This document shows, piece by piece, positions 6,293-19,876 of a stretch of 64,000 bases of DNA; position 1 is the stretch's first letter, and each line of letters begins with the position of its first letter. Position numbers and translations under genes: made by a program. Origin of the DNA: Promethearchaeota archaeon (GTDB lineage Archaea; Asgardarchaeota; Lokiarchaeia; Sigyniarchaeales; SOKP01); the NCBI GenBank assembly GCA_011364925.1, contig RDOA01000012.1, forward strand, positions 15,048 to 79,047. Reading direction: 5' to 3'. The notes beneath the pieces were generated by a model. That model was not told the origin of the DNA and made no database searches. It saw nothing but the letters and a program-made list of their open reading frames with translations.

Positions 6293-7339
6293 TTAATTAC
6301 TAGCAATAACTATCATTTTATCATGAATTTGGTCTGTCAACAATATTCTCAGATGGGGTTCATCAGTTTTAAATCTTACTTCTTCTAACTTACCCTCAAC
6401 GAGTACAGACTCGCCTTCAATTGCCTGTTCACAAAACCTTCCTCGAAAAGAGCTAACTTCACTTATGTTATCTAATTTGATACTTTTTCCAATAATTTTG
6501 CTTTCTAGCACTTTTACACAGCTAATTTCATATGAACAGGGAGTAAAGATTGAATTGGTTGAATCTATTAGATTTGCTTTTACTTTAATCCTTCCTAGAT
6601 TTTTGAATTGATAATCGTAGTATGTTCCCTTCCAGTCATTAGGATCTTTTATATACCTGATAAAGAAATCGATTCCATGGTATTTTCCTTGATGTAACTT
6701 CCTTTTTTCACTCTTTAAAAAACTCTCGAAACTAATGTTAGAACCTCCTACCCTCCATTTATAGTGGTCTTTATATTCAGATAAGTTGTAGGATCTACAA
6801 TCGTTTGGAGTGAGAAGAATTTGTTTTAACTTATCTTGAAACTCTAAAATATTATGAGTTCCATATATCATTATATCTATATCAGAATCAGCCAAACCCA
6901 ATCCAATCATTGGTGATCCAGAAATTCCAATTGCATCTTCTGGTATTGATCCGTCTGTAATTAATAATTTACAAAGATTTCTGGAATGAAGCTCCAGTTT
7001 TGTTAATTCTTTTTTCAAATTAAGCAATTTATAATATTCTTTGGGAGTGTATATTTTCTCTATATCTCCATTTTTTACGCCCTGAACTCTTAAATCAAGT
7101 TCCTTTGAAAAAAAAATAAATTGAGGGTATTTTTCTTCGAGTTTCAAATATCTTTCGTCCAATGAATAGATTTTTCTATATTTTCTGCCTTCCTTTATTC
7201 GTTCACCATTCTGATCGGGAACAAACCTTAAAAAACAAATTTTGCGATCTCGAGGATGGTGATAACCTTTTATATCAAAAAACAAATGGTCATCTTTGGT
7301 TTCGAGGTAATCCCCTTCAATTCCTTTTGGAATGTTCAT
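6293..7339 (-). CDS. Pol-beta superfamily nucleotidyltransferase with C-terminal OB-like domain (COG1665-like, tentative)
   Basis: GISGSPMIGLGLADSDIDIMIYG gives the GS...DxD signature of minimal nucleotidyltransferases. The C-terminal third is beta-rich and OB-like. Confidence 0.55.
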   Translation of the reverse strand: MNIPKGIEGDYLETKDDHLFFDIKGYHHPRDRKICFLRFVPDQNGERIKEGRKYRKIYSLDERYLKLEEKYPQFIFFSKELDLRVQGVKNGDIEKIYTPKEYYKLLNLKKELTKLELHSRNLCKLLITDGSIPEDAIGISGSPMIGLGLADSDIDIMIYGTHNILEFQDKLKQILLTPNDCRSYNLSEYKDHYKWRVGGSNISFESFLKSEKRKLHQGKYHGIDFFIRYIKDPNDWKGTYYDYQFKNLGRIKVKANLIDSTNSIFTPCSYEISCVKVLESKIIGKSIKLDNISEVSSFRGRFCEQAIEGESVLVEGKLEEVRFKTDEPHLRILLTDQIHDKMIVIASN

Positions 7340-7359: not shown

Positions 7360-8463
7360 TTAATATTTTGAAGGTGTCTTCGATTTTATTTGATACTTGG
7401 GAATTTCTTTTATTTTTTGTAATTCTCTTTCAAACTCTTTTTTCTCTTTAAGAAATCTCTCCTTATCACTATCTAACTTTTGCCTTTCTTTTCTTATTGA
7501 AATCTTCTCATCTTCTATTTTTGATTTTTCTTTTTCTATATTTTTTATGTCATCGTTTAATTTTTTCAATTTCTTTTCTGAATTCTGAATTTTATGTTCT
7601 AATGAATAATAAGCGTCTTCTGCTTGAGGCACCTTTCTGTCTAATTCTTTCAGTCGAGCTTCTTGCCCTTTTTTCTTACGTTCTAGTTCTCTAACATCAT
7701 TATCAACATTTTCTTTAAATTTTCCTAGTTTTTCTTTCTTTTTCTCAATATCGCGGGCTTTAAGGTTCAAATTTTGTTTCTTGTATCGAACTTTTTCTTT
7801 TTCATCTTTTAACCTTCTTTTTTCATCTTCAATTCGATTTTTTTCATCTGTGATTTCTCTTTTCAAATTATTAATTTCTTTGTTTAAATTATCCCGTTCT
7901 CTTGTTAAGTTTTTAACTTCGTTTCTTAAGTCCATTAAATTGTTTTCTAACTTTTCAATTGTTCTTTCTAATGCGTCTTCTCTCCGTTCCATTCCAGGTA
8001 ATTTCGTTTTTATTTCTTTAATTCTTTCTTTTGCTTTTGCTTTTTCTTTTTCTATATTTCTCTTTTCGTTCTCTAGTTCTTCCCTAATGCCATCTAACTT
8101 CTCTTGATATCGCTCTAAATCAGCAGTTTTCTGATCTAGCTCTCTCTCTTTCGCATGTAGTTCGTTTTTACTACTGTTTATTTCGTTTCTCATTCTATCT
8201 AATTCCAATTTTAAGTCCTCGTATTGCTTTTGAAGTTCTCTGACTTCAAGTTCTTTTTGTTTTCTTTTTTTTTCTAATTCTTCAATATTTTCGTTATATC
8301 CGTCAATTTTATTGATTACTCGCTCCCATTCATTCTTCTCCTTATTCAATTTAATTCTTTCTTCTTTAATTTTTTTAAGAAGCTTCCCATCAACGCTTTT
8401 ATCTAACTCTTCCTCAGGAGTTTTTTCTCGGATTTGATACTTTGGAATTGGTTTTTCCTTCAT
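7360..8463 (-). CDS. Long K/E-rich coiled-coil protein with IPKYQI(R/K)xKTP motifs at both termini
   Basis: 367 aa, almost entirely heptad-like charged sequence. The N-terminus reads PIPKYQIREKTPE and the C-terminus reads EIPKYQIKSKTPSKY. Confidence 0.7.
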   Translation of the reverse strand: MKEKPIPKYQIREKTPEEELDKSVDGKLLKKIKEERIKLNKEKNEWERVINKIDGYNENIEELEKKRKQKELEVRELQKQYEDLKLELDRMRNEINSSKNELHAKERELDQKTADLERYQEKLDGIREELENEKRNIEKEKAKAKERIKEIKTKLPGMERREDALERTIEKLENNLMDLRNEVKNLTRERDNLNKEINNLKREITDEKNRIEDEKRRLKDEKEKVRYKKQNLNLKARDIEKKKEKLGKFKENVDNDVRELERKKKGQEARLKELDRKVPQAEDAYYSLEHKIQNSEKKLKKLNDDIKNIEKEKSKIEDEKISIRKERQKLDSDKERFLKEKKEFERELQKIKEIPKYQIKSKTPSKY

Positions 8464-8643: not shown

Positions 8644-9045
8644 ATGGATTTTGACGAGGAATTTGATAAGGAGTTCGACGAAGAATTGGAGGAGGATTTT
8701 GACGAAAACTTAGATGAAGATTTTGACGAACCTACTTCAAAAACTCCTCCTGACGATGTTAAAGTTAAGACTCCAGAACCTCATCTCCCTCCTGAAGGAA
8801 AAAAGATATCTGTATTTTTTCTTTCTACTATTGGTCCGGGAGAAAAAAAACAAAAATTACTAGTATATACTGGTAATAAAGTTGGAGACATTAAAGATAC
8901 TGTGGCAAATTTGTTTGCGCTAGATCCATCCGATTTCCATTTGTCTTCAGGAGGAGTGACAATGGATGAGACATCTTACCTAAGCGATTATAATGTAGAT
9001 GAAGGAGATGACATATTATTAATTCCTGCTAGCGTAGCAGGTTGA
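8644..9045 (+). CDS. Ubiquitin-like beta-grasp protein A, acidic repeat N-terminal extension, C-terminus ...LLIPASVAG-stop
   Basis: The C-terminal 80 aa (KKISVFF...DIKDTV..LF..DP.DFHLSSGGVTMDE...DYNV..GDDILLIPASVAG) has ubiquitin-like spacing and ends in Gly. It is a close paralog of 10898-11230. GGTG RBS about 9 nt upstream. Confidence 0.75.
   Translation: MDFDEEFDKEFDEELEEDFDENLDEDFDEPTSKTPPDDVKVKTPEPHLPPEGKKISVFFLSTIGPGEKKQKLLVYTGNKVGDIKDTVANLFALDPSDFHLSSGGVTMDETSYLSDYNVDEGDDILLIPASVAG
8650..8733 (+). repeat. Seven tandem tetrapeptide-coding repeats (F/L)-(D/E)-x-(E/D/N/P) inside Ubl-A
   Basis: Read as FDEE FDKE FDEE LEED FDEN LDED FDEP. At DNA level gattttgacga-like units recur every 12 nt. 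Confidence 0.8.
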
Positions 9046-9086
9046 GAACTAAGAAAGATATAAAAATCTTAAATTATTTTTTCATT

Positions 9087-9875
9087 CTATTTTTTTCTCG
9101 ATGGTATTAACGCGATCTCGTCATCGTCGTCAATAGAATAATCCCTTATCTGCTTTGATTCGTCTAACAATATCCCACCGGTGGATAGGAGAAAATCTTC
9201 TAAAGCATAATCAAATAGAATTCCGACTTGTTCCTTGAGGATATTTACTAATTCTGAAGTTTCAATAACGATTATTTTGGTTTTCTCGCCAGGTTCGACT
9301 AATGATCTTACATAAACGCGAATCTTATCATCCATTCCAATAGTGGTCAGTGGTGGGTTGTACTGCACTTTTTCATTAGTTCTTTCCTTATATTGCAAGA
9401 TATCTTTAATTAACCGTTTTCTTTCGCTAGGTTCAAAATATAGCATTTCTCTGATAAAAAAGATTTTATCCATCTTTGATAACCCTAGCAAATCAATTTT
9501 GTCTAATTCTTCTCTATTGAACAATGTAAAAATGTAATCGTCGAAGGTCTCAATTTTTTCAAAAGTTTCATCGCTATCTGCATATTGATCTACTAATGGC
9601 ATAGCTTCGAAGTAATCTTCGATTAGTTCGCTTGTAGTTCTATGTATTGGATTTAACTTTTTAGCGTATTTATCTTTTTTTATCTTTTTAGCGGGACTAC
9701 CCGTAGAAGATACAACGGTATAGATCGTGCCCGTTGACAATACCGCAACGCTCCCAACAGTTAGAAAGAGGAATAGAGGTAAACTTTCTATCTGCATTAA
9801 GAAAAAAATCAAATAGAGTATTGCAAAAACAATGTAAAGAGTTAAAATACTTAGAATTCTAAATTTTTTTTTCAT
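9087..9875 (-). CDS. Membrane-anchored protein with C-terminal ubiquitin-like domain (no terminal Gly)
   Basis: Two N-terminal hydrophobic helices. The C-terminal 80 aa (KIRVYVRSLVEPGEK.K....V.ILKEQVGILF...EDFLLSTGGILLDES..IRDYSIDDDDEIALIPSRKK) aligns position by position with the two free Ubls. Confidence 0.65.
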   Translation of the reverse strand: MKKKFRILSILTLYIVFAILYLIFFLMQIESLPLFLFLTVGSVAVLSTGTIYTVVSSTGSPAKKIKKDKYAKKLNPIHRTTSELIEDYFEAMPLVDQYADSDETFEKIETFDDYIFTLFNREELDKIDLLGLSKMDKIFFIREMLYFEPSERKRLIKDILQYKERTNEKVQYNPPLTTIGMDDKIRVYVRSLVEPGEKTKIIVIETSELVNILKEQVGILFDYALEDFLLSTGGILLDESKQIRDYSIDDDDEIALIPSRKK

Positions 9876-9953
9876 GGTTTTTTGGCGAATCTATTCTCTA
9901 AATTTATGATTTAAATGGTATCTAATAAATCGCATTGGTATAACTTTGTAATT

Positions 9954-10628
9954 TTATATATCATAAGGAACTGATTTTCTAATATTCTCATATCTCTTGG
10001 AGTCTAATTTATATAAATCTCTTTTTTTATCTTTTTCAATTGATATTAATTTTAAATTCATTAAAATTTCAAGATATTTTTTAATTGTATTGTAATTACC
10101 TTTTAGGATAGAAGCTATTTCAGTAATTTTCAAAGAATTATCTTCACTCTTTAATAGATTTATAATCTCACGAACGATTTCTTGCTTTAAATAATAATAT
10201 ATCTCGTCTAAATCTGGATCTGAATCGTAATCAAAAATAATTCTTTGATTCTCTATTTTCTTCGACCGTGTAAATCTGAACTTTTCTAAACATGATAAAT
10301 GCCATAACGCTTGATTACTTCCAATATTTATTGCTTTCATTATTTCATTTACATTGGATGGAGTCTTTCGGATATAATTATAAATTTCATTTCGGATTGG
10401 ATGTTCAATAATGTTATTTTTCATTAATCTAGTTCCAGGGATTAGAATTCTTTTTTTAATAAGGTTTTTAATAAAGATTTCGATACTATTTCTGTTCAAT
10501 TCAGGATTAGCTCTTACCCTATTATTGATGAACACCACGATATCTTCGACAGAAAAGAACGGTTTCTTTTTTAAATATTCCTCTATTAGACCACAGACAA
10601 TAGATTGAAGGCTATCAGGCTTGCTCAT
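9954..10628 (-). CDS. Multi winged-helix (wHTH) protein, ArsR-like central module
   Basis: IRNEIYNYIRKTPSNVNEIMKAINIGSNQALWHLSCLEKFRF is an ArsR-type wHTH. A second wHTH follows (KITEIASILKGNYNTIKKYLEILMNLKLISIEKDKKRDLYKL), and there is a possible third at the N-terminus. Confidence 0.6.
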   Translation of the reverse strand: MSKPDSLQSIVCGLIEEYLKKKPFFSVEDIVVFINNRVRANPELNRNSIEIFIKNLIKKRILIPGTRLMKNNIIEHPIRNEIYNYIRKTPSNVNEIMKAINIGSNQALWHLSCLEKFRFTRSKKIENQRIIFDYDSDPDLDEIYYYLKQEIVREIINLLKSEDNSLKITEIASILKGNYNTIKKYLEILMNLKLISIEKDKKRDLYKLDSKRYENIRKSVPYDI

Positions 10629-10897
10629 AAGCTTATTGTTTTAATGTGTTGAATTATACGATTTTTATAATCAAATCTTCTCTCTAAAAGGATATTTTTC
10701 AATTTATATATATTGATAAACAATCATTTAATTTATAAGTATATTAAACTAGGCATTTTAATCTTAATGAATACATTTTTTACATATAACTTAAAAATCT
10801 TCAAAATCATTCCAATCGGTTTTTTAACTCAATATTTTCACCATTAATATAAGTCTAAAAAAAAACTTAAACTAAAAAAACCAAGGAAGCGATTTGA

Positions 10898-11230
10898 ATG
10901 AGTTTTGAAGAAGATTTTGATGAGGAATTAGAACCAGTTAAATCTAAAACCCCATCAAGTAAAACACCCTCAACAGGTAAGAAGTTGACTTTATATTTTA
11001 TGTCAACTATTGGTCCTGGTGAAAAGAAGGAGAAGTTAACTGTCAATGATGCAAATCGGGTAAGTGATATTAAACAGACATTAGGAAATCTATTCGGTCT
11101 TGATCCAGATGAATTTCACTTATCATCTGGAGGTGTTACAATGGATGAGAATAGTCAATTAAAAGATTATAATGTCAATGACGGCGACGACATTCTTTTG
11201 ATTCCAGCAAGTACTGCGGGATTAAATTAA
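10898..11230 (+). CDS. Ubiquitin-like beta-grasp protein B (first gene of the E1-E2-JAMM-RING operon), C-terminus ...LLIPASTAG-LN
   Basis: Same core as Ubl-A (KKLTLYFMSTIGPGEKKEK...DEFHLSSGGVTMDEN..DYNVNDGDDILLIPASTAGLN). Short acidic FEED FDEE LEPV N-terminus. AAGGAAG RBS-like element upstream. Confidence 0.8.
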   Translation: MSFEEDFDEELEPVKSKTPSSKTPSTGKKLTLYFMSTIGPGEKKEKLTVNDANRVSDIKQTLGNLFGLDPDEFHLSSGGVTMDENSQLKDYNVNDGDDILLIPASTAGLN

Positions 11231-11263: not shown

Positions 11264-11300
11264 AAGGGCTTTAAGCCCTTCAATTTTTTTATTTTTTTGA
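11264..11300 (+). terminator. Hairpin plus oligo-T tract between Ubl-B and E1
   Basis: AAGGGCT-tta-AGCCCTT forms a perfect 7-bp stem, followed by caatttttttattttttt. Oligo-T tracts act as archaeal termination signals. Confidence 0.4.
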
Positions 11301-11309
11301 ACAATATTA

Positions 11310-12545
11310 ATGGTGATAATATTGCATAAGGATTCAGATTTTTTTGCAAAGGGATTGTCAGAAGAAGAGAGAGACTTATACGATCGTCAATTTCGTTTAG
11401 AAGGATGGTCCCAAAAATTAGTAAAAAAATCGAGAGTTTTAATCGCGGGAGTAGGAGGGTTAGGATGTGAAATTGCTAAGAATTTAGCTATGTTAGGGGT
11501 AGGCCATATAGATCTCGTGGATCTAGATATCATCGAACACTCTAACTTAAACCGCCAAGTTCTGTTTGCAGGCGCAAAGCTGGGAGAACCGAAAGCAATT
11601 GCGGCTGCAAAAAAGTTAGCTGAAATTAATCCTAATATTATTGTTAATGGATACCATTCATCGTTAGAACGATTAGAGCCCTCTCTCTACTATAATGCTG
11701 ATGTTGTTATAGGGGGACTTGATTCAATGAATGCGAGATTAAATTTAAACGCTCAATGTATTAGATTTAGGAAACCATTAGTAGATGGAGGGGTTTCTGG
11801 CTATTATGGACATGTATATACAATATTCCCATATCGGAATGCATGTTATGAATGCAATCCGCTGCCAGATGTGGCAAGTGATGAAATGGCAGCTTGTACC
11901 GTAGTTGGTATCCCTCGAAAAAGAATTCATTGCGTTTTTAAAGGAGATATGGCCTTCAAAGAAAAATTTGATAGAGATCCGAATCCTAAAAATGTAGAAG
12001 AGATAAGGTTTATTCAAAAAGTTGCAAATGAACTTGTTACAAAACACAATTTCTTTCCTGAATATACAGAAGATGATATTGTAAAAATTATTGATCGCCA
12101 TGATCCAGGAATTATAACAATAAACGCAACAATATCAGCTTTACAATCTCACGAAGCGATTAAAATCCTTCATTGGAAAAACGGTCATAAAGGATTAGGT
12201 GAACCAATTATAAATTATATGATATTTAATGCTATGACAATGAAATTATACCACATTGAAAAGAAGAGAAATCCAGAATGTTCTCAATGTGGTAAAAATG
12301 TGAGACGCGTTGTAATTAAAATGAGAGAAAACTCTCCATGCATGAATATAATTAAAATATTACAAAAAAATGGATACAAATTAGAATCGGAATTTGAACC
12401 AGTATTAACTCTTTTGGATTTTAACGATATAATTGTTCTAGATTTAGAGCAAAATCCAATTCAAAATGGTTTGAGGATTTACGAATTTCTCACGGTTGCG
12501 GGGTTTGAAGGAGGAGAAATATACGTAACCTTAAAATTTAAATAA
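11310..12545 (+). CDS. Ubiquitin-activating E1-like enzyme (ThiF/MoeB/UBA family)
   Basis: YDRQ.RL..W, the Rossmann motif VLIAGVGGLGCEIAKNLAMLGVGHIDLVDLDIIEHSNLNRQ, the zinc pairs CYEC and CSQC, a candidate catalytic Cys in MAACTVVGIP, and an extra C-terminal domain of about 80 aa. Confidence 0.9.
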   Translation: MVIILHKDSDFFAKGLSEEERDLYDRQFRLEGWSQKLVKKSRVLIAGVGGLGCEIAKNLAMLGVGHIDLVDLDIIEHSNLNRQVLFAGAKLGEPKAIAAAKKLAEINPNIIVNGYHSSLERLEPSLYYNADVVIGGLDSMNARLNLNAQCIRFRKPLVDGGVSGYYGHVYTIFPYRNACYECNPLPDVASDEMAACTVVGIPRKRIHCVFKGDMAFKEKFDRDPNPKNVEEIRFIQKVANELVTKHNFFPEYTEDDIVKIIDRHDPGIITINATISALQSHEAIKILHWKNGHKGLGEPIINYMIFNAMTMKLYHIEKKRNPECSQCGKNVRRVVIKMRENSPCMNIIKILQKNGYKLESEFEPVLTLLDFNDIIVLDLEQNPIQNGLRIYEFLTVAGFEGGEIYVTLKFK

Positions 12546-12611: not shown

Positions 12612-13139
12612 ATGAGTATAAGAAGTAGTCGAGTCTCTCGAGATTTTGCGGGACTTAAAAGATTGCTAAAGGAAGGTACCATCATCCAATTAAAGCCATT
12701 TAATCCAAAAAAAAAGAGTATTGATCACTTAGCTTTAACGGTTAAAGGTCCTAAAGGAACAGCTTACGCAGGAGGATTGTTCAGATTGGAAATGAAGTTT
12801 CCTGTTCAGTACCCTAAACAACCTCCTTTTGTGAGATTGCACACTCCTATTTGGCATCCAAATTTTTGGCCAAAACCTAATGAATATAAAGGACAAAGAA
12901 ATATTTGCTTAGCGTTAGTAGATCCGTCTCTAGTGGGGACAAAAGGTGGATGGAGCCCTTCGAAAACAGCTGTTACAGTTGTTCAAGCAATCATTGCTAT
13001 GCTCAACACGCGAGGTAAGTATGTCAATCCAACTGATGTGTTTAATAAAAAAGCAGCGATAGAAATGATAAAGGATCCTAAAATGTTTGAAAAGAAAGTG
13101 AAAAGCTTAACTAAGAAATACGCTAAGGATAAATGGTGA
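12612..13139 (+). CDS. Ubiquitin-conjugating E2-like enzyme (UBC fold)
   Basis: GPKGTAYAGGLFRLEMKFPVQYPKQPPFVRLHTPIWHPNF....NICLALV carries the canonical UBC core. The HPN motif is at 12855-12863 and the catalytic Cys codon is at 12906-12908. Confidence 0.85.
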   Translation: MSIRSSRVSRDFAGLKRLLKEGTIIQLKPFNPKKKSIDHLALTVKGPKGTAYAGGLFRLEMKFPVQYPKQPPFVRLHTPIWHPNFWPKPNEYKGQRNICLALVDPSLVGTKGGWSPSKTAVTVVQAIIAMLNTRGKYVNPTDVFNKKAAIEMIKDPKMFEKKVKSLTKKYAKDKW

Positions 13140-13146
13140 TTATGGA

Positions 13147-13956
13147 ATGGGCATTGACGAAAATAATTCTAGTTCCATTAGAGATGCGATAAAACAGAGA
13201 ATTAAAGAGAAAATTAAAAAAGAACTCCTCGAAGAAGTGTACACTGAATTACAATTAGAAGAATTACAAGAAGAAATAACCGCTGAATTTATCGATGTAA
13301 AACCGATAAATCACTCTAAATATATCAAAGCTAACCTTGAACCAATTCCAATGGAACCCGTAGTAGAAACTGTGGCTAGAAGCGATAAAATTGAAGCGAC
13401 TATAACAATCACGATAAAAGCAGTTCTTAAAATCGCCAGTCATTCTCTCAAATATGCGCATTCAAAAATACCTAGAGAACAATGGGTAGAAGTAATTGGC
13501 TTACTCGCTGGAAAGTATAATGAGTCTAACGGAATATTACATATTGAAGATGCTTATCCAATGGGGCATGGTACAGCGGTGTATGCTGAAATAAAGGATT
13601 ATAAGAATTATGTTAGAGCTTTTAAAGATATCAAGAAAAAAAAGGGCTTATTCATAGCAGGATGGTATCATAGCCACCCAAGTTATAGTTGCTTTATGTC
13701 AAGGGAAGATTTAAGCACACAGGCTAGATATCAAAAGCTTTGGGACAAAGCCGTTGCACTCGTAATCGATCCATTTTTAATTAACGGAAGATCAGTTGGA
13801 TTTGAAATTTACCGCGCAAATTTTAAAACAAAGAAATGGTTTTCAGTGCCTTTTGAAATTAAAGGGCATTTAGATATTCGCATGTTACCGGAGATTATAG
13901 AATTCATGAATCCGATAATAGAAGGGAAACCAGCCTATTTAGAATATGATGAGTAA
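13147..13956 (+). CDS. JAMM/MPN+ metalloisopeptidase (Rpn11/CSN5-like)
   Basis: The upstream Glu is in EVIGLLAG. The JAMM motif HSHPSYSCFMSREDL (H-x-H-x7-S-xx-D) lies at 13669-13710. Charged N-terminal extension of about 80 aa. Confidence 0.9.
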   Translation: MGIDENNSSSIRDAIKQRIKEKIKKELLEEVYTELQLEELQEEITAEFIDVKPINHSKYIKANLEPIPMEPVVETVARSDKIEATITITIKAVLKIASHSLKYAHSKIPREQWVEVIGLLAGKYNESNGILHIEDAYPMGHGTAVYAEIKDYKNYVRAFKDIKKKKGLFIAGWYHSHPSYSCFMSREDLSTQARYQKLWDKAVALVIDPFLINGRSVGFEIYRANFKTKKWFSVPFEIKGHLDIRMLPEIIEFMNPIIEGKPAYLEYDE

Positions 13957-13988: not shown

Positions 13989-15110
13989 ATGGTTAAAAAT
14001 AAAACCTTAACAATCATTTTTGCTATTTTTTTAGTTATTGGGGTAATTCATGGTTTAATCTCTCTTTCTTTTTTAAATTTTGCAACCTGGGTTTTAATAG
14101 GATTATGGGTAATATTTACAATAAAATTATATGTAAACATAAAACGGCACCGTGAGTTTAATTCGCCACATAATACTGCATTTTTTGTCATTATTCCGTT
14201 AACTATTGGAATATTTTACTCAATTTGGGGCTATTATACAGGAATTCTAGGAGAAAATTTACTCGGTGGAGTATATTTTAGTCTATGGAGCTTAATTTTT
14301 GCTTTTCCTTTTGTGATCTATGGATCCTACTCATTATATCGATGTTTCAAGAAATACAATGTAATATATTTTGGGACCAAAGCTGTGAAAGCCCGAAAAT
14401 TGGGATACATTCTTTCTTTTTCAGTTCTTATTTTTATTTTGATTTATTGGATAAGTTTTTATAGCGCAATTGAGAGTTTTCCGTTGGATTTGAATCTCTT
14501 AATACTATTTATAGCTACAATTTTAGTCGTAATAATATTTGGTTTTACTAATTCTCGTCCATCATTACCTACTTTAACACGCGATTATATTGCAAATCGT
14601 ACTAGAACAATAAACAATTTAACTACGCCTACAACACAACGACAGCGTTTACGGACTACAAGAGTAACCGCTCCTACTCCATCTACTAGAGCAACAACAC
14701 AAACTTCAAGATCGAGAACTCATTCGTCAAGAATAACCCCTACATCACATAGACAAACTACAAGAACTAAAACAACAAAAGTTACACACACAACTACTGT
14801 TAAACCTACTTCCAAAATTCGGAATATTAATAATTATAAACCCAGAGCATCGTATTTGTCATTAGAAGATTTTAAGTGTATCTTTTGTTTTAAGCTACCA
14901 AAACTTCCTGATGACAAGGGTCGAGGAGTGGTTATATGTCCAAATTGCAGATATCCCTCCCATGCGGATGAATTCAAAGATTGGATGCGCACTTCAAATC
15001 TTTGTTCGCGTTGTAGTGCTCCTATTCCTACCAGCTTTAGGCGTAATCCCAGTATAGTAAGTGTAAAGAACTACATTATTGCTTATAAACAATTGTTAAA
15101 ACGCAAATAA
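13989..15110 (+). CDS. Polytopic membrane protein with T/R/S-rich linker and C-terminal RING-like zinc finger (putative membrane E3)
   Basis: About six hydrophobic helices (13989-14570). Low-complexity linker TTPTTQRQRLRTTRVTAPTPSTRATTQTSRSRTHSS... (about 14598-14820). The finger is CIFC-x17-CPNC-x4-H-x3-F-x2-W-x7-CSRC (14877-15014). Confidence 0.6.
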   Translation: MVKNKTLTIIFAIFLVIGVIHGLISLSFLNFATWVLIGLWVIFTIKLYVNIKRHREFNSPHNTAFFVIIPLTIGIFYSIWGYYTGILGENLLGGVYFSLWSLIFAFPFVIYGSYSLYRCFKKYNVIYFGTKAVKARKLGYILSFSVLIFILIYWISFYSAIESFPLDLNLLILFIATILVVIIFGFTNSRPSLPTLTRDYIANRTRTINNLTTPTTQRQRLRTTRVTAPTPSTRATTQTSRSRTHSSRITPTSHRQTTRTKTTKVTHTTTVKPTSKIRNINNYKPRASYLSLEDFKCIFCFKLPKLPDDKGRGVVICPNCRYPSHADEFKDWMRTSNLCSRCSAPIPTSFRRNPSIVSVKNYIIAYKQLLKRK

Positions 15111-15218: not shown

Positions 15219-15779
15219 ATGAATAAAGAAAGCGTACAAGAACTAATCACACAACTTATTAAGGAGATTGAAGGGAATGAGGGAGAATTACGCCCTGCCA
15301 CGAAAGAAACTCCAAGACGAGTAGCCAATGCGTATAGCGAAATATTTGATGGCTATCGAACAGACATAGACAAGGAAGTGAAAGTCTTTAAAGCAAACTA
15401 TAGCGAGATTATTGTATCTAAAGATATTAAGTTTTATAGCATGTGCGAGCACCATATTCTCCCTTTCTACGGTACTGTTGACATTATATATATGCCAGGC
15501 GAGTATCTTTTAGGAATTTCAAAATTCGCACGAGTAGTTAATTATTTTTCTCATAGATTAAATGTTCAAGAAAAGATGACAGATGACATTGCAAATTATT
15601 TAATGACCTGTTCGTTAAAACCAAGAGGAGTGATGGTTATAGTCAAAGGTACTCATTTATGCGAGATAATGAGGGGTGTAAAGCAGTCTAATCCTTTAAT
15701 AATAACATCTGCTATAAAGGGAATATTTAAAACTAACCTTGCTACGAGATCAGAAGCGTTGGAACTATTAAATTTATAA
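15219..15779 (+). CDS. folE: GTP cyclohydrolase I (FolE type IA)
   Basis: TP.RVA.AY.E.F.GY, the hallmark SMCEHHILPFYG, and QERLT-like VQEKMT. 186 aa. Confidence 0.9.
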   Translation: MNKESVQELITQLIKEIEGNEGELRPATKETPRRVANAYSEIFDGYRTDIDKEVKVFKANYSEIIVSKDIKFYSMCEHHILPFYGTVDIIYMPGEYLLGISKFARVVNYFSHRLNVQEKMTDDIANYLMTCSLKPRGVMVIVKGTHLCEIMRGVKQSNPLIITSAIKGIFKTNLATRSEALELLNL

Positions 15780-15837
15780 CCCTAAACATATTATTACTGA
15801 CAATAGTTATTTTTTTATCAAAATCATAAAAATTTTT

Positions 15838-17019
15838 GTGTGGGTTATGTCCAAAACCTTCATACATAGTAATTACGGTTTGATTGGAGTCGGCTTAGAA
15901 TTTAAAAAGAACATCACAGTCGAAGTTAATGAAGATGGAATAATTAATAATCTTTCTTATGATGATGTAAGAGAAGATATCAATATTTCGTCGAAACATC
16001 CTACTTTTTTATTAATACCTGGTTTGATTAATTCTCATATTCATATTTGTGACAGTTTTGCTAAAGAACAAGGTTTTAATAAAAATTTAATAGAAGTTGT
16101 CGCCCCTCCTAATGGGATTAAACATAAATTGCTAGAAAATACTTCAGAAGCGATCAAAGTACAAGGAATAAAAGAAGCAGTTAAGGATATGTTAGCTAAT
16201 GGCATAACTCTGTTCGTAGATTTTAGAGAAAATGGAATAATTGGCGTTAACATATTAAAAGATGCTTTAGAAAATTCACCAATTAATTGCATTATTTTAG
16301 GAAGATTCAAAAATCTTGAAGAAGCAGAGGTTATTATAAAAAAAGCTAATGGAATTGGATTTGCAAGTTATGATCAGCTTTCTCAAGATCATAAAAATAT
16401 AATAATTGGATTAAAAAATAAATATAGAAGCAAGATTATTGCTTGTCACGATGCAGAGTTATCACGGAACGAGTTACTATTGAAGGATATAATAAGAGAT
16501 GGAATAATTGATGTTGTTATTCACGGGACGCACTATACGATGGAAGATTTAAAAAAGATTAAGGAAAACCATATAATGTTAGTTTTATGCCCAAGATGTA
16601 ATGGTTATTTTGGGTGTGGTTTTCCACCTATTAAGGAATTATGCTATCTAGAAATCCCTGTTAGTCTTGGAACAGATAATGTAATGGCAAATAACATTGA
16701 TTTATTTGAAGAGATGCGTTATTTATATAGGATTTTCCGTGTATTGGCTGCTAATAAAAGTAAGAATATTTTAACATCAAAAGAGCTGTTAAAAATGGTA
16801 ACTATTAATGCTGCAAAAAACTTTGGTCTGTTAGAGAAATTTGGTTCTATTTCAGTGGGAAAATATGCGGATTTTTCTCTATTAAGCCTTTCTGATTCAA
16901 ATTATTATTCACATGAGTTTGATAGTGAAAATATTTATAACATAATTGTTCAAAGAACAAGGGCAGAGAATATAAAAAGGACTTATATTAAAGGTGAGGT
17001 AGTATCTGAAAGAAAGTGA
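15838..17019 (+). CDS. Amidohydrolase-superfamily deaminase-type enzyme (cytosine/guanine/MTA deaminase-like)
   Basis: PGLINSHIHI (HxH metal site), ACHDAE (HxxE motif of the deaminase subgroup), VIHGTH, and LGTDNV (terminal Asp). Confidence 0.75.
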   Translation: MWVMSKTFIHSNYGLIGVGLEFKKNITVEVNEDGIINNLSYDDVREDINISSKHPTFLLIPGLINSHIHICDSFAKEQGFNKNLIEVVAPPNGIKHKLLENTSEAIKVQGIKEAVKDMLANGITLFVDFRENGIIGVNILKDALENSPINCIILGRFKNLEEAEVIIKKANGIGFASYDQLSQDHKNIIIGLKNKYRSKIIACHDAELSRNELLLKDIIRDGIIDVVIHGTHYTMEDLKKIKENHIMLVLCPRCNGYFGCGFPPIKELCYLEIPVSLGTDNVMANNIDLFEEMRYLYRIFRVLAANKSKNILTSKELLKMVTINAAKNFGLLEKFGSISVGKYADFSLLSLSDSNYYSHEFDSENIYNIIVQRTRAENIKRTYIKGEVVSERK

Positions 17020-17029
17020 ACATCCTTAT

Positions 17030-17677
17030 GTGATTTTAAGTGCTGCTATGACAATTGATGGAAAAATTGCATCAAAAAATGGAGATCCAGAAATTTCTGA
17101 TGAAGAGGATTGGAAATCTGTTCATAAACTTCGAACAGAGGTGGATGCGATTATGGTTGGTAAAGGATCCATACTGAAAGATAATCCCAAATTACATATA
17201 AAATATTACGATCATAACGGGTACTATCGTATTGTATTGGATAGCAATCTTTCCATTCCAATTGATTCGAATATTATTACCTATGAACCCGATACTTATC
17301 CAACTATTATAGTAACAACCGAAAACGCTCCTGTTGATCGAATTAGGGAATTTGAAGCAAAAAATGTAATTATTATTAAGTCTGGAAGTGGGAATGAAGT
17401 TGATATTGTTAAATTGATGCCCATTTTATACGGAAAAGGCATAAAGAGGATCCTTTTAGAAGGTGGGGCCAGATTAAATTGGAGTTTTATCAAAAATCAT
17501 TTAGTAGACGAAATTAGAATCACAATAGGACCCTGGATGGTAGGGGGTAAGGATGCCTTGAGTTTAGTGGAAGGAGAGGGTTTCGCAAAAATGTGTGAAA
17601 GCCCAAGATATTGCTTATCAAATGTGAAGAAGAACAATAACTATATAACTCTTTATTATAAGAAAGAAAAACCATGA
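17030..17677 (+). CDS. RibD C-terminal-type reductase (2,5-diamino-6-ribosylamino-4(3H)-pyrimidinone 5'-phosphate reductase, ArfC/Rib7-like)
   Basis: ILSAAMTIDGKIASKNG....S.E.DW..VH.LR..VDAIMVGKG.I..DNP.L and ILLEGGARLNWSF. Apparent GTG start; the in-frame HPYV upstream suggests the start is uncertain. Confidence 0.75.
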   Translation: MILSAAMTIDGKIASKNGDPEISDEEDWKSVHKLRTEVDAIMVGKGSILKDNPKLHIKYYDHNGYYRIVLDSNLSIPIDSNIITYEPDTYPTIIVTTENAPVDRIREFEAKNVIIIKSGSGNEVDIVKLMPILYGKGIKRILLEGGARLNWSFIKNHLVDEIRITIGPWMVGGKDALSLVEGEGFAKMCESPRYCLSNVKKNNNYITLYYKKEKP

Positions 17678-18801
17678 AAACCACTAAAGAAATAGAACAA
17701 TTGGAAAAGATACCAATAAAAGCGCTGAAAGAAAAAATTAAAAGTATAAGAGAAGAACTTCCTAAAGAAGAACAGAATATTGTTACTTTTTCTAAGAACT
17801 TTACACTTTCTCTTTCAAACTATTGTCAAAATCAATGTGGATACTGTTTCTATAACCAGCATGTATCTAAAGAGATTCTAGAACAGTATATTGCACTAAT
17901 TGAAGAAAATAAAATTAATGATTTAATCCAAGCAGCAATAAAATTTGGATGCACAGAAGCTTTACTAATGTCTGGTGAATCTCCTGATAAGTTCGAAGTA
18001 GTTCAAAAAGAATTGGAAAAAAGAAACTATAGCAATTTCAACCAATTTGTGAAAAGATTAAGCGAAAAGTTGTTAGAATTCAATCTTTTACCCCATACAA
18101 ATATAGGTGCGCTCTCATTCGATGAATTAAAATATTTAAAGGATACAAATGCTAGTATGGGTTTAATGATTGAGAGTACCTGTGAAACTCTTTCCAAACC
18201 TGGTGGTGTTCATGAAAATTCACCAAATAAAACGCCAGAAACTAGAATTAAACACATTATAGACGCGGGAAAGTTAAAGATTCCCTTTACTACAGGCTTA
18301 TTATTAGGAATTGGTGAGAGATTTCAAGATCGCATAAAGGATTTGTACTTAATCAAAGAACTTCATCAAAAATATGGTCACATCCAAGAAGTAATAATAC
18401 AAAATTTTACAGAAAAATCGAGGATTCCCTATCATCCGAAAAAACCAATAAATATAGAAGAAACTCTCAAAACTGCGGGTGTTGCAAAATTAATATTTGA
18501 AAACGATATAGCGATTCAAGTTCCTCCTAATTTAATTCAAAATTACGAAAAGGAAGCTTTAGAAATGGGAATTGATGATTTTGGAGGCATATCTCCATTT
18601 ACTATAGATTATATTAACCCCCACCACGCTTGGCCAAAAATACCACTCTTAGAAAAGTTATGCATGAGTTTTGGATATGAACTTAAGGAAAGGCTTCCTA
18701 TATATAAGAAATTTATAGATAAAAACGGATTTTGTTCTGAAATTATTAAAAAAACGATAAAAAGGATTGATCTGAATGTTAGAAGCGAAAAAGATTCTTA
18801 G
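17674..18801 (+). CDS. cofG: FO synthase subunit 1 (CofG, radical SAM)
   Basis: VTFSKNFTLSLSNYCQNQCGYCFY matches the CofG-type CxxxCxxC context rather than the NRNINxTN context of MqnC/MqnE. ATGA overlap with the upstream gene. Confidence 0.75.
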   Translation: MKTTKEIEQLEKIPIKALKEKIKSIREELPKEEQNIVTFSKNFTLSLSNYCQNQCGYCFYNQHVSKEILEQYIALIEENKINDLIQAAIKFGCTEALLMSGESPDKFEVVQKELEKRNYSNFNQFVKRLSEKLLEFNLLPHTNIGALSFDELKYLKDTNASMGLMIESTCETLSKPGGVHENSPNKTPETRIKHIIDAGKLKIPFTTGLLLGIGERFQDRIKDLYLIKELHQKYGHIQEVIIQNFTEKSRIPYHPKKPINIEETLKTAGVAKLIFENDIAIQVPPNLIQNYEKEALEMGIDDFGGISPFTIDYINPHHAWPKIPLLEKLCMSFGYELKERLPIYKKFIDKNGFCSEIIKKTIKRIDLNVRSEKDS

Positions 18802-19876
18802 AAAAGCTGAAGATTCAGTTGAGATTAGCCCGGATGAAGCTTTAATCCTATTAAAAATCACGGGTAAAGATTTCACAGCTTTACAACAGACTGCTGATCA
18901 GATTTGTTTTGAGAAGAAGAATAATCTCGTAAGTTTTATCATAAATCGAAATATAAATTTTACAAATGTCTGTTATCAAGGATGTAAATTCTGCTCGTTT
19001 TCTGTTTCAAATAAAAATAAAGACAGTTTTTTAAAAACTATTGAAGAAATAAGAGAGGATGTTACTGAAGCTAAGAACGCAGAATGCACTGAAGTATGCA
19101 TCCAAGGAGGGATTAATCCAGAATTAGATTTCGACTATTATTTAGAGATTTTGAAAATAGTAAAGGAGATTGATTCAAATATCCATACTCACGCTTTTTC
19201 TCCTCAAGAAGTGTTCTATATGTCAAAATTATACGGCTCATCGATTTATGATGTGTTAAAGGAGTTAAAAAAAGCAGGTTTAGATTCTATGCCAGGAACA
19301 GCAGCAGAAATTTTAGTAGATGATATCAGAAAAGTTATTTGTCCAAATAAAATTACCACTTCTCAATGGATTGATGTGATAAAATCAGCACATGAATTAG
19401 GAATCCCCACTACTTCGACTATGATGTATGGTCACATTGAAGATTTAAAGGACAGAATAGAACACCTCGAGATTTTAAGGAATATACAGAAAGAAACTTC
19501 CGGGTTCACCGAATTTGTCCCTCTACCCTTTGTTAAAGAAAATCCTCTTTTATCTAAATTGACAGATTTCCCTCTAAAACCTAGCTATGGAATGGCAGAT
19601 TTAAAATTGTTTGCGGTAGCAAGAATTTTCCTCAACAATTACATTGATAATATTCAATGTTCTTGGGTAAAGTTGGGCCCAAAATTCGCTCAAGTTTCTC
19701 TATATTACGGAGTAAACGACTTTTCTGGTACGTTAATGGAAGAGAACATTTCAAAAAGCGCAGGAGCCGAATTTGGAGAATATTTAGCTCCGGAAGAGAT
19801 GATCTCTATCATTAAAGCTGCCGGCAAGAAACCTGTGCAGAGGGATACGCTCTATAAATTATTAAAATTCTACTGA
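18776..19876 (+). CDS. cofH: FO synthase subunit 2 (CofH, radical SAM)
   Basis: VSFIINRNINFTNVCYQGCKFCSF. Overlaps cofG by 26 nt. Pairing with a CofG-type gene favours CofH over MqnE. Confidence 0.7.
   Translation: MLEAKKILRKAEDSVEISPDEALILLKITGKDFTALQQTADQICFEKKNNLVSFIINRNINFTNVCYQGCKFCSFSVSNKNKDSFLKTIEEIREDVTEAKNAECTEVCIQGGINPELDFDYYLEILKIVKEIDSNIHTHAFSPQEVFYMSKLYGSSIYDVLKELKKAGLDSMPGTAAEILVDDIRKVICPNKITTSQWIDVIKSAHELGIPTTSTMMYGHIEDLKDRIEHLEILRNIQKETSGFTEFVPLPFVKENPLLSKLTDFPLKPSYGMADLKLFAVARIFLNNYIDNIQCSWVKLGPKFAQVSLYYGVNDFSGTLMEENISKSAGAEFGEYLAPEEMISIIKAAGKKPVQRDTLYKLLKFY

Follow-up and report, generated by a model that had tools for sequence, protein, structure and literature searches.

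A Promethearchaeota archaeon harbors a real and conserved gene cluster of a known type, an Asgard/archaeal operon for ubiquitin-like (Ubl) conjugation. The cluster was analyzed within a window of 64,000 nucleotides (nt) from this archaeon (contig RDOA01000012.1, positions 15,048-79,047, forward strand), and coordinates refer to the window unless another locus is named. It is probable that this Loki-type cluster provides two free modifiers, UblA and UblB, which end in Ala-Gly and carry labile propeptides that are trimmed off, together with a third, membrane-anchored paralogue that is not conjugatable. Relative to the literature searched, the invariant Ala-Gly end, the propeptides that flicker on and off, and the syntenic, membrane-tethered, non-conjugatable paralogue are new. 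Asgard ubiquitin systems serve to reconstruct the origin of eukaryotic ubiquitylation, and Loki-type archaea have cultured strains. The modifiers, the membrane-anchored copy and the associated enzymes are encoded as follows.

8644-9045, + strand: UblA, a free ubiquitin-like modifier of 133 amino acids (aa) (open reading frame (ORF) list)
8797-9042, + strand: beta-grasp module of UblA
9087-9875, - strand: membrane-anchored Ubl-domain protein, 262 aa (ORF list, hydropathy, AlphaFold2 model)
10898-11230, + strand: UblB, a ubiquitin-like modifier of 110 aa (ORF list)
10976-11221, + strand: beta-grasp module of UblB
11310-12545, + strand: E1-like activating enzyme, 411 aa (Pfam ThiF, 196.8 bits)
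12612-13139, + strand: E2 with UBC fold and HPN motif (Pfam UQ_con, 87.7 bits)
13147-13956, + strand: Rpn11-like JAMM/MPN+ metalloprotease (Pfam JAB, 56.9 bits)
13989-15110, + strand: polytopic membrane protein with about six transmembrane (TM) segments and a C-terminal Cys-rich domain

The genes for the E1, the E2, the JAMM protein and the Cys-rich protein lie on the same strand downstream of UblB and are spaced by 8-80 nt.

Three ubiquitin folds and the Ala-Gly end

Exactly three beta-grasp modules were found in the window when a profile hidden Markov model of the module was run against the six-frame translation. The C-terminal ~80 aa of the three proteins align without gaps in BLASTP: UblA and UblB are 71% identical (E 6e-44), UblA and the membrane copy 39% (E 1e-19), and UblB and the membrane copy 37% (E 6e-21). 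Similarity of this degree is far above chance, and the three modules are genuine ancient paralogues. The almost gap-free alignment described in an earlier reading made from the sequence alone (the sequence-only reading) is therefore confirmed. The consensus string given there is essentially right, but at I, V, IK and DF it reflects a two-of-three majority rather than strict invariance. Codons of UblA and UblB are 39% identical at the third position versus 80% at positions 1 and 2, indicating that the duplication is old and that both copies are under purifying selection. In a neighbor-joining tree of the modules the membrane copies are monophyletic and the B copies nearly so; the tree is too short to tell which of A and B represents the positional ancestor.

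The fold of the modules is ubiquitin-type. UblB scores 30.1 bits against Pfam PF00240, over the gathering cut-off of 25.4 bits; UblA (17.7 bits) and the membrane copy (20.4 bits) fall under it. The AlphaFold2 (AF2) model of UblB has a disordered N-terminus and a beta-grasp at residues 29-107, the latter with a predicted local distance difference test score (pLDDT) of ~90. Its top Foldseek match among PDB structures is Caldiarchaeum ubiquitin (6fno_D, E 1.2e-7, TMt 0.77), from the complex of Caldiarchaeum subterraneum ubiquitin with its Rpn11 homologue, followed by ubiquitin variants, ISG15 and NEDD8. When UblB is aligned to ubiquitin with HMMER, V70 of ubiquitin corresponds to I102 of UblB, and the tail P-A-S-T-A-G has the same length as L-R-L-R-G-G of ubiquitin. 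The ubiquitin I44 position is an invariant Ser and the K48 position a Val. NCBIfam holds no family for the Ubls, the E2, the membrane Ubl or the membrane Cys-rich protein.

UblA ends in ..LLIPASVAG, with the Ala-Gly codons GCA GGT at 9037-9042 and a TGA stop directly after (through 9045). UblB ends in ..LLIPASTAG-LN, with the Ala-Gly codons GCG GGA at 11216-11221. Read directly, these codons agree with the earlier statement that UblA ends at Ala-Gly and UblB at Ala-Gly-Leu-Asn. Conservation of the Ala-Gly was followed in three samples: the 120 nearest metagenome cluster representatives of each of UblA and UblB; 80 loci from species-representative genomes, retrieved via the E1 (67-92% E1 identity), whose ORFs were called and then assigned by BLASTP; and the distant family, the 520 matches to a profile search of 1.84 billion representatives clustered at 50% identity. 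Ala-Gly is kept in 239 of the 240 closest representatives. All 120 for UblB keep S-T/S-A-G followed by 0-3 variable residues. For UblA, 108 of 120 end exactly in [VIT]AG, 11 more carry 1-6 extra residues, and one ends in unrelated sequence. Every A- and B-position Ubl across the 80 loci retains Ala-Gly, and nearly all of the distant family-specific matches, many fusion proteins included, end in [ST]-x-A-G plus 0-7 residues (for example HSTAGVL, SSRAG, VSTAGYRRER, ISLAGES, ASHAGKHKPF and VSVAG).

The sequence-only reading had named a lack of Ala-Gly conservation among related genomes as the finding that would speak against it. Instead, the survey revealed a terminus that is near-invariant in the 240 representatives, the 80 loci and the distant family. 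Its contrast between Ala-Gly and the usual Gly-Gly holds. The end is unusual, and no member ending in Gly-Gly was found among the family-specific matches (the 240 nearest, the 80 loci and the distant representatives), but it is not unprecedented. In the bacterial protein BilA of E. aridi, a JAMM protease cleaves at Gly97 and an Ala-Gly remnant is left on target lysines (PMC10557695). In the literature searched, no mention was found of an Ala-Gly end in Lokiarchaeal or other Asgard ubiquitins; only bacterial BilA surfaced. With a C-terminal Gly that is exposed in UblA, exposable in UblB, invariant in orthologues of both and missing from the membrane copy, UblA and UblB look like conjugatable modifiers with Ala-Gly as the reactive end.

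The Ala-Gly end has practical consequences. If the modifier always ends in Ala-Gly, no conjugate would be detected by K-epsilon-GG remnant antibodies or by Gly-Gly-based database searches. Digestion with trypsin would yield a remnant of 19 residues (DYNVNDGDDILLIPASTAG), such that other proteases or engineered variants would be needed.

The Ala-Gly-ended module is also found as the C-terminal domain of larger proteins (P0382, P0395, P0361, P0362). The fusion types include a HerA-like ATPase with a Ubl, CDC48_N with VWA and a Ubl, and double and triple tandem Ubls. Fusions of a Zn-ribbon, a coiled coil and a Ubl (255-297 aa) lie downstream of the operon in some members of a clade with a single operon Ubl (L074 11874-13829, L076 10266-11048, L077 12797-13579). 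One of these fusions ends in SRVAG and its close homologue in SRVAE.

Labile tails after the glycine

The Leu-Asn tail of UblB is encoded by TTA AAT at 11222-11227, followed by a TAA stop at 11228-11230. Tails of this kind come and go among relatives. Fifty-seven genomes have both UblA and UblB, and of these 36 carry a tail on neither copy, 10 on B only (the state of the window), 8 on both and 3 on A only. In the clade with a single operon Ubl, 6 of 9 genomes carry a tail on the sole operon copy. Tails span 1-7 residues in the loci, and those of the metagenome clusters reach 9. The tail residues are mostly Y, I, K, F and L, which have AT-rich codons, and the tail sequences are not conserved, whereas the Ala-Gly before them is fixed.

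The tails originate where the stop codon is altered by a 1-nt shift or a point change, which opens one common AT-rich 3' flank. In genes without a tail the sequence is GGN TAA/TAG ACT TAT ATA. A KLI tail (GGT AAA CTT ATA TAA) is a one-base shift of GGN TAA ACT TAT ATA, an RLI tail (GGT AGA CTT ATA TAA) derives from GGN TAG ACT TAT A.., and a YF tail reads GGA TAC TTT TAA. The UblB 3' flank TAA ACT TAT ATA ATT TTC TTC ATA is kept across genomes. The window reads GGA TTA AAT TAA ATT TAT ATA, compared to GGA TAA ACT TAT ATA in its nearest relatives (L002, L003 and L006). Leu-Asn was seen in the window sequence only and in 0 of the 120 nearest representatives, and the most similar modules (95-98% identical) end in AG or AG-YF. 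Leu-Asn thus appears to be a recent accident of the window's lineage. One related locus (L068, 6837-7852) has two tandem UblB genes upstream of the E1, ending in TAG and TAG-YLV, and its UblA is tailed too (KCIC).

All 41 tailed copies retain Ala-Gly and a conserved core, and there are genomes in which every copy is tailed, so the tails must be removable. This pattern strongly suggests that a tail-trimming activity exists. The linked JAMM protein is most plausibly the trimming enzyme, a candidacy based on its place in the operon and on the examples of Caldiarchaeum and Bil. According to the proposed mechanism, a stop codon would be lost by a 1-nt indel or a point mutation, translation would run a few codons into the AT-rich 3' flank, and the tail would be tolerated because the protease, most plausibly the Rpn11-like JAMM of the operon, re-exposes the Gly. 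The tails would then illustrate, in nature, a propeptide owed solely to a trimming protease that renders slippage at the stop codon harmless.

Fixed roles for the two modifiers, with UblA constitutively ready and UblB a latent pro-form gated by JAMM processing, seem unlikely. The sequence-only reading had proposed such a division into a ready-made and a pro-form modifier, and it is correct insofar as UblB of the window has a two-residue extension that would need trimming. B is also tailed more often than A, both among metagenome cluster representatives (86/120 versus 12/120) and in species genomes (23/67 versus 12/58), and B lies in the enzyme operon while A forms a separate transcription unit. 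However, the extension is not paralogue-specific. All four tail states occur, including the 36 tail-free genomes, the 8 tailed on both copies and the 3 tailed on A only; the tails are unconserved products of stop-codon changes; and Leu-Asn is unique, with the closest relatives of UblB here lacking a tail. In addition, the cores are near-equal, with consistent differences at five conservative positions only (S/T, V/L, Q/E, V/L and A/G). A designed division of labor between A and B is not supported by these results.

The main differences between A and B are instead the length of the acidic N-tail and the transcription unit. UblA has a disordered, acidic N-tail of ~50 aa with (DFDE)n and two KTP motifs, and UblB a short, acidic tail of ~25 aa with two SKTP motifs. 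Across the 80 loci (L001-L080), the A-type acidic (D/E-F-D-E)n tail is highly variable in length, giving proteins of 120-176 aa, whereas the B-type tail is near-constant (proteins of 108-118 aa). UblA and UblB are regarded as near-equivalent substrates of one E1 and one E2.

It is quite improbable that tailed copies simply go unprocessed, being inactive or non-covalent, with the tail as a sign that a redundant paralogue is decaying. One of two near-identical modifiers could be dispensable, and tails do arise through simple mutations. Decay of this kind is nevertheless difficult to reconcile with an Ala-Gly and a whole core conserved in 41 of 41 tailed copies, with tails in 6 of the 9 single-operon-Ubl genomes, and with the 8 genomes tailed on both paralogues.

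Enzymes of the cluster and the membrane-anchored copy

CxxC zinc motifs are present in the E1, which adopts a ThiF fold. Among PDB structures, SAE2/UBA2, UBA1 and UBA3 come closest to it (E ~1e-36), with MoeB/ThiF ranking behind. A Cys of the E1, in the motif ..AACTVVGIPR.., falls in the part that lines up with ..PGCTIRNTPS.., the catalytic-Cys segment of SAE2. The E2 has an HPN motif and the Cys context ..NICLAL.., and matches E2 R/L3/T/N in the PDB at E ~1e-13. The E1 and E2 are closer to the eukaryotic UBA2/UBA1/UBA3 and UBC proteins than to MoeB/ThiF.

A role of the small proteins as MoaD/ThiS/SAMP/Urm1-type sulfur carriers served by a MoeB-like E1, in place of one as protein modifiers, is highly improbable. 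The ThiF fold and partial NCBIfam matches to MoeB/ThiF/UbaA are in keeping with such a role, and a beta-grasp with a C-terminal Gly suits both uses. However, the E1 is far below all NCBIfam MoeB/ThiF/UbaA cut-offs (best 143 bits versus 266), and its best solved relatives are the UBA proteins. Moreover, the operon holds a canonical E2 with HPN motif and Cys as well as an Rpn11-like JAMM, and the small proteins match Pfam ubiquitin and, in structure, Caldiarchaeum ubiquitin. That the Ala-Gly ends or the triplication belong to the window's assembly alone is barely credible, since hundreds of independent orthologues drawn from many samples share the three genes, their order and the Ala-Gly end; an artefact is excluded for all but the Leu-Asn tail, which is singly attested and hinges on one extra T.

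The JAMM protein contains an intact E...HSHPx7SxxD metal-binding motif. In the PDB it is closest to the Caldiarchaeum Rpn11-like protein (6fjv/6fnn/6fno, E 1.4e-17), with Rpn11, CSN5 and AMSH ranking next. The JAMM protein is a candidate for both the tail-trimming and the deconjugating enzyme. In the last protein of the operon, a T/R/P-rich linker separates the region of about six TM segments from the C-terminal domain, which has the pattern C-x2-C-x17-C-P-x-C-x4-H-x13-C-x2-C, conserved in 68 orthologues. The domain has only a weak Pfam match to zf-P11 (E 0.26), and a PDB sequence search with it returned only chance-level matches. This Cys-rich membrane protein is a candidate membrane E3. In the proposed pathway, the UBA2/UBA1-like E1 would adenylate the mature Ubl and form a thioester with it, the HPN-type E2 would take the Ubl over, and ligation to lysines would follow; the membrane Cys-rich protein may assist as E3.

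The membrane copy ends in ..ALIPSRKK and lacks a terminal Gly, as do all 47 aligned orthologues, which end in a basic tail of the IP[SL][RK]K.. type. Judged by its sequence, the membrane copy is non-conjugatable and should not be open to activation by the E1. The earlier claim to this effect is upheld by the missing terminal Gly in every orthologue seen; its wording that the copy has no Gly at all is true of the C-terminal tail but not of the whole protein. From the N-terminus, the protein consists of a TM hairpin (aa ~4-55 by hydropathy, nt ~9711-9866; ~3-46 in the AF2 model), a basic disordered linker, a conserved helical domain (aa ~83-164) and the beta-grasp (aa 184-258, nt 9102-9326). Orthologues are conserved over their full length, TM hairpin and helical domain included, and the Foldseek matches of the AF2 model are ubiquitin-like. 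According to the positive-inside rule, the Ubl domain would face the cytoplasm. It is proposed that the third paralogue lost Ala-Gly, is tethered at the cytoplasmic membrane face by its N-terminal TM hairpin, and most likely acts non-covalently by docking or regulating the E2, the E3, the JAMM protein or a downstream receptor. The receptor or decoy role suggested for this copy in the sequence-only reading is likewise hypothetical. The membrane copy resembles UBX-domain Cdc48 adaptors (Ubx2/UBXD8) in architecture only, namely a membrane hairpin and a C-terminal beta-grasp. A Pfam scan at E<=1 gave no UBX match for the membrane copy, and membership in the UBX/Herp type was rejected for want of any Pfam signal.

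Several points weigh against two trimmed modifiers and a membrane-held regulator. The excess of tailed B over tailed A copies, most pronounced among the metagenome representatives, means that the paralogues may differ quantitatively in tail tolerance. The JAMM gene is linked in all loci, whether tails are present or absent, and its linkage therefore does not discriminate. The Leu-Asn tail comes from a single sequence with one extra T in an A/T run, and could be a single-base indel error. The Cys-rich domain is not recognized as a RING by Pfam or by the PDB sequence search. The AF2 model of the membrane copy has a moderate mean pLDDT of 65 (80-87 in the Ubl part), and the possible role of this copy, docking or regulation of the E2 or E3 at the membrane, is drawn by analogy. 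Finally, cleavage by the JAMM protein, E1 acceptance of Ala-Gly and conjugation to lysines are inferred for this family, the cleavage from the Caldiarchaeum and Bil precedents.

The Caldiarchaeum operon, one of the known systems closest to this locus, has the same kinds of genes: a Ubl, a UBA-like E1, a UBC E2, a Zn-finger E3 candidate (srfp-RING there) and an Rpn11-like JAMM. CsRpn11 cuts pro-CsUb after the Gly-Gly of its C-terminus, and the E1 activates the cleaved form only (PMC5654768, PMC6043591). CsUb ends in TVGG plus 9 residues (PMC5654768), unlike the invariant Ala-Gly and unstable tails of this locus. This locus also differs from Caldiarchaeum in encoding a pair of free modifiers whose acidic N-tails contain SKTP, in addition to a membrane-anchored paralogue that is not conjugatable. 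Its E3 candidate is polytopic, sits in the membrane and has a Cys-rich domain that is not detectable as a RING. Among Asgard archaea, a Helarchaeial E1/E2/RING cascade with a pro-ubiquitin (Gly-Gly plus SPKN) has been reconstituted in vitro (10.1101/2023.07.25.550441). Helarchaeial and other ESCRT-linked Asgard ubiquitins end in Gly-Gly, in contrast to the Ala-Gly of this locus, and neither the A/B pair nor the membrane paralogue was found mentioned in the Asgard ubiquitin literature searched (10.1101/2023.07.25.550441; PMC9192718).

The bacterial BilABCD system is antiphage; in that of E. aridi the JAMM pre-processes the Ubl so that its Gly is exposed and also deconjugates it, and the E1 and E2 conjugate it to lysines (PMC10557695). 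BilA of E. aridi shares the mature Ala-Gly end, but Bil is a sporadic defense island whereas the present cluster is lineage-wide and syntenic. PADLOC-DB 2.0.0 (2023), which possibly does not include Bil models, gave no match for the Ubls or the E2 and generic matches only for the E1 and JAB. A scan of viral contigs (IMG/VR) with the Ubl alignment found no relatives. A Bil-like defense island was rejected on these grounds and because the cluster is syntenic and vertically conserved. PDB entries 8HM1-3, labeled "putative ubiquitin", are actually Bacteroides ubiquitin homologues and irrelevant here.

Mature UFM1 ends in Val-Gly, and its precursor carries a Ser-Cys dipeptide. UblB is similar in having a non-Gly penultimate residue and a two-residue propeptide. 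Unlike the UFM1 system, the E1 here is distant from UBA5 (E ~2e-14 only), the E2 here has the HPN motif that UFC1 lacks, and the candidate protease is a JAMM and not a Cys protease. SUMO ends in Gly-Gly, is trimmed by Cys proteases and has a psi-K-x-E site in its N-tail. UblA and UblB share with SUMO a flexible N-extension before the beta-grasp and variable, removable precursor tails; the N-tails here differ in being strongly acidic and in carrying SKTP motifs.

The membrane copy can be compared to MUBs, ubiquitin-fold proteins that are anchored in the membrane and both bind and regulate particular E2s, and to UBL3, which the MARCH E3 ligase MARCH1 requires for ubiquitination (PMC4996978, PMC9001657). 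Like MUB/UBL3, the membrane copy has a ubiquitin fold without a conjugatable Gly and is held at the membrane. However, MUBs are anchored by C-terminal CAAX prenylation, whereas the membrane copy has an N-terminal TM hairpin and, like its orthologues, a basic end (SRKK here) that lacks Cys. The missing CAAX box and the different anchor place it outside the MUB/UBL3 family. The presence of a membrane-tethered, non-conjugatable paralogue near a membrane Cys-rich E3 candidate makes an archaeal origin of membrane ubiquitin-fold regulators testable.

Conservation of the cluster and its neighbors

The remaining features of the cluster in the window are the following.

6293-7339, - strand: nucleotidyltransferase-like (NTase) protein, 348 aa, with weak Pol-beta-like Pfam matches
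7360-8463, - strand: Lys/Glu-rich coiled-coil protein, divergent from UblA
9954-10628, - strand: two-winged-helix protein (ArsR/SdpR-like), 224 aa (Pfam HTH_5, 31.4 bits)
11264-11298, + strand: G+C-rich hairpin AAGGGC-TTTAA-GCCCTT followed by a long T-run, read from the sequence

Where the contig is long enough, the gene order is the same in ~55 of the 80 genomes: NTase (-), coiled-coil protein (-), UblA (+), membrane Ubl (-), winged-helix protein (-), UblB (+), E1 (+), E2 (+), JAMM (+) and TM-Cys-rich protein (+). In a deeper clade (L071-L078 and L080; E1 67-73% identical), the cluster is simpler and comprises only the coiled-coil protein (-), one Ubl (+), E1 (+), E2 (+), JAMM (+) and the TM-Cys-rich protein (+). 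Synteny across the lineage indicates that the cluster is vertically inherited and lineage-wide. Each of the three Ubl proteins has hundreds of metagenome relatives, and the named ones are mostly Promethearchaeota/Lokiarchaeota metagenome-assembled genomes (MAGs). The "Ub region" of Lokiarchaeota has already been listed as a discrete cluster, separate from ESCRT (PMC9192718).

Some labels of related contigs require caution. Locus L004 (DATKTW010000176.1) has the cluster with an E1 that is 89% identical and was deposited as "Candidatus Nanopelagicaceae bacterium"; it is probably mis-binned or mislabeled, and the remark also covers P0152 and P0318. MAGs from one study labeled Odin-, Thor-, Heimdall-, Hod- and Hermodarchaeota have E1s that are 80-84% identical, and these labels may not reflect lineage.

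The coiled-coil protein is a conserved neighbor even in the single-Ubl clade. It carries an IPKYxI+xKTP motif at both termini, present at the N-terminus in 60 and at the C-terminus in 55 of 62 orthologues. Resembling it, one or two [IV]KSKTP-like motifs occur in the disordered N-tails of the Ubls (8644-8800 and 10898-10975 in the window) in 127 of 134 orthologues. The 610 aa of the coiled-coil protein and the Ubls contain KTP 6 times, compared to 8 occurrences in the remaining long ORF segments of the window, which total ~23,400 aa. The motif could be a docking or an acceptor site. A more elaborate possibility, rather unlikely on balance, is that the cluster specifies a self-contained, membrane-proximal module in which KTP is a consensus acceptor or docking site, with SUMO-like chains and modification of the coiled-coil protein, and in which the membrane copy, as a counterpart of MUB/UBL3, holds the E2 by the E3. 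Neither feature has been described for an archaeal Ubl system. If true, the KTP and MUB-like roles together would prefigure membrane-RING pathways of the MARCH/endoplasmic-reticulum-associated degradation (ERAD) type.

In the loci, the winged-helix gene is always flanked by the membrane Ubl gene, with which it is co-directional, and by UblB, from which it diverges. The protein is below the NCBIfam cut-offs for ArsR/SmtB and SdpR and matches a Csa3-like winged helix-turn-helix model in PADLOC. A spacer of 270 nt, AT-rich, separates its gene from the UblB-E1 operon, and the protein is a candidate regulator of the cluster. The hairpin at 11264-11298 may be a partial terminator or attenuator between UblB and the E1 and, if acting, could give more Ubl than enzyme transcript. 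Reading the conserved TATA-like UblB 3' flank as a promoter was set aside, as the hairpin and T-run intervene before the E1.

The NTase gene neighbors the cluster in most loci, next to the coiled-coil gene, and its product has no NCBIfam family. On the other side of the cluster, the stretch at 15219-19876 (+) appears by eye to encode GTP cyclohydrolase I-, amidohydrolase- and RibD-C-like reductase-like proteins and a radical-SAM FO-synthase-like pair. A GTP-cyclohydrolase-like gene follows the cluster in few related loci only (L003-L009, L068 and L079).

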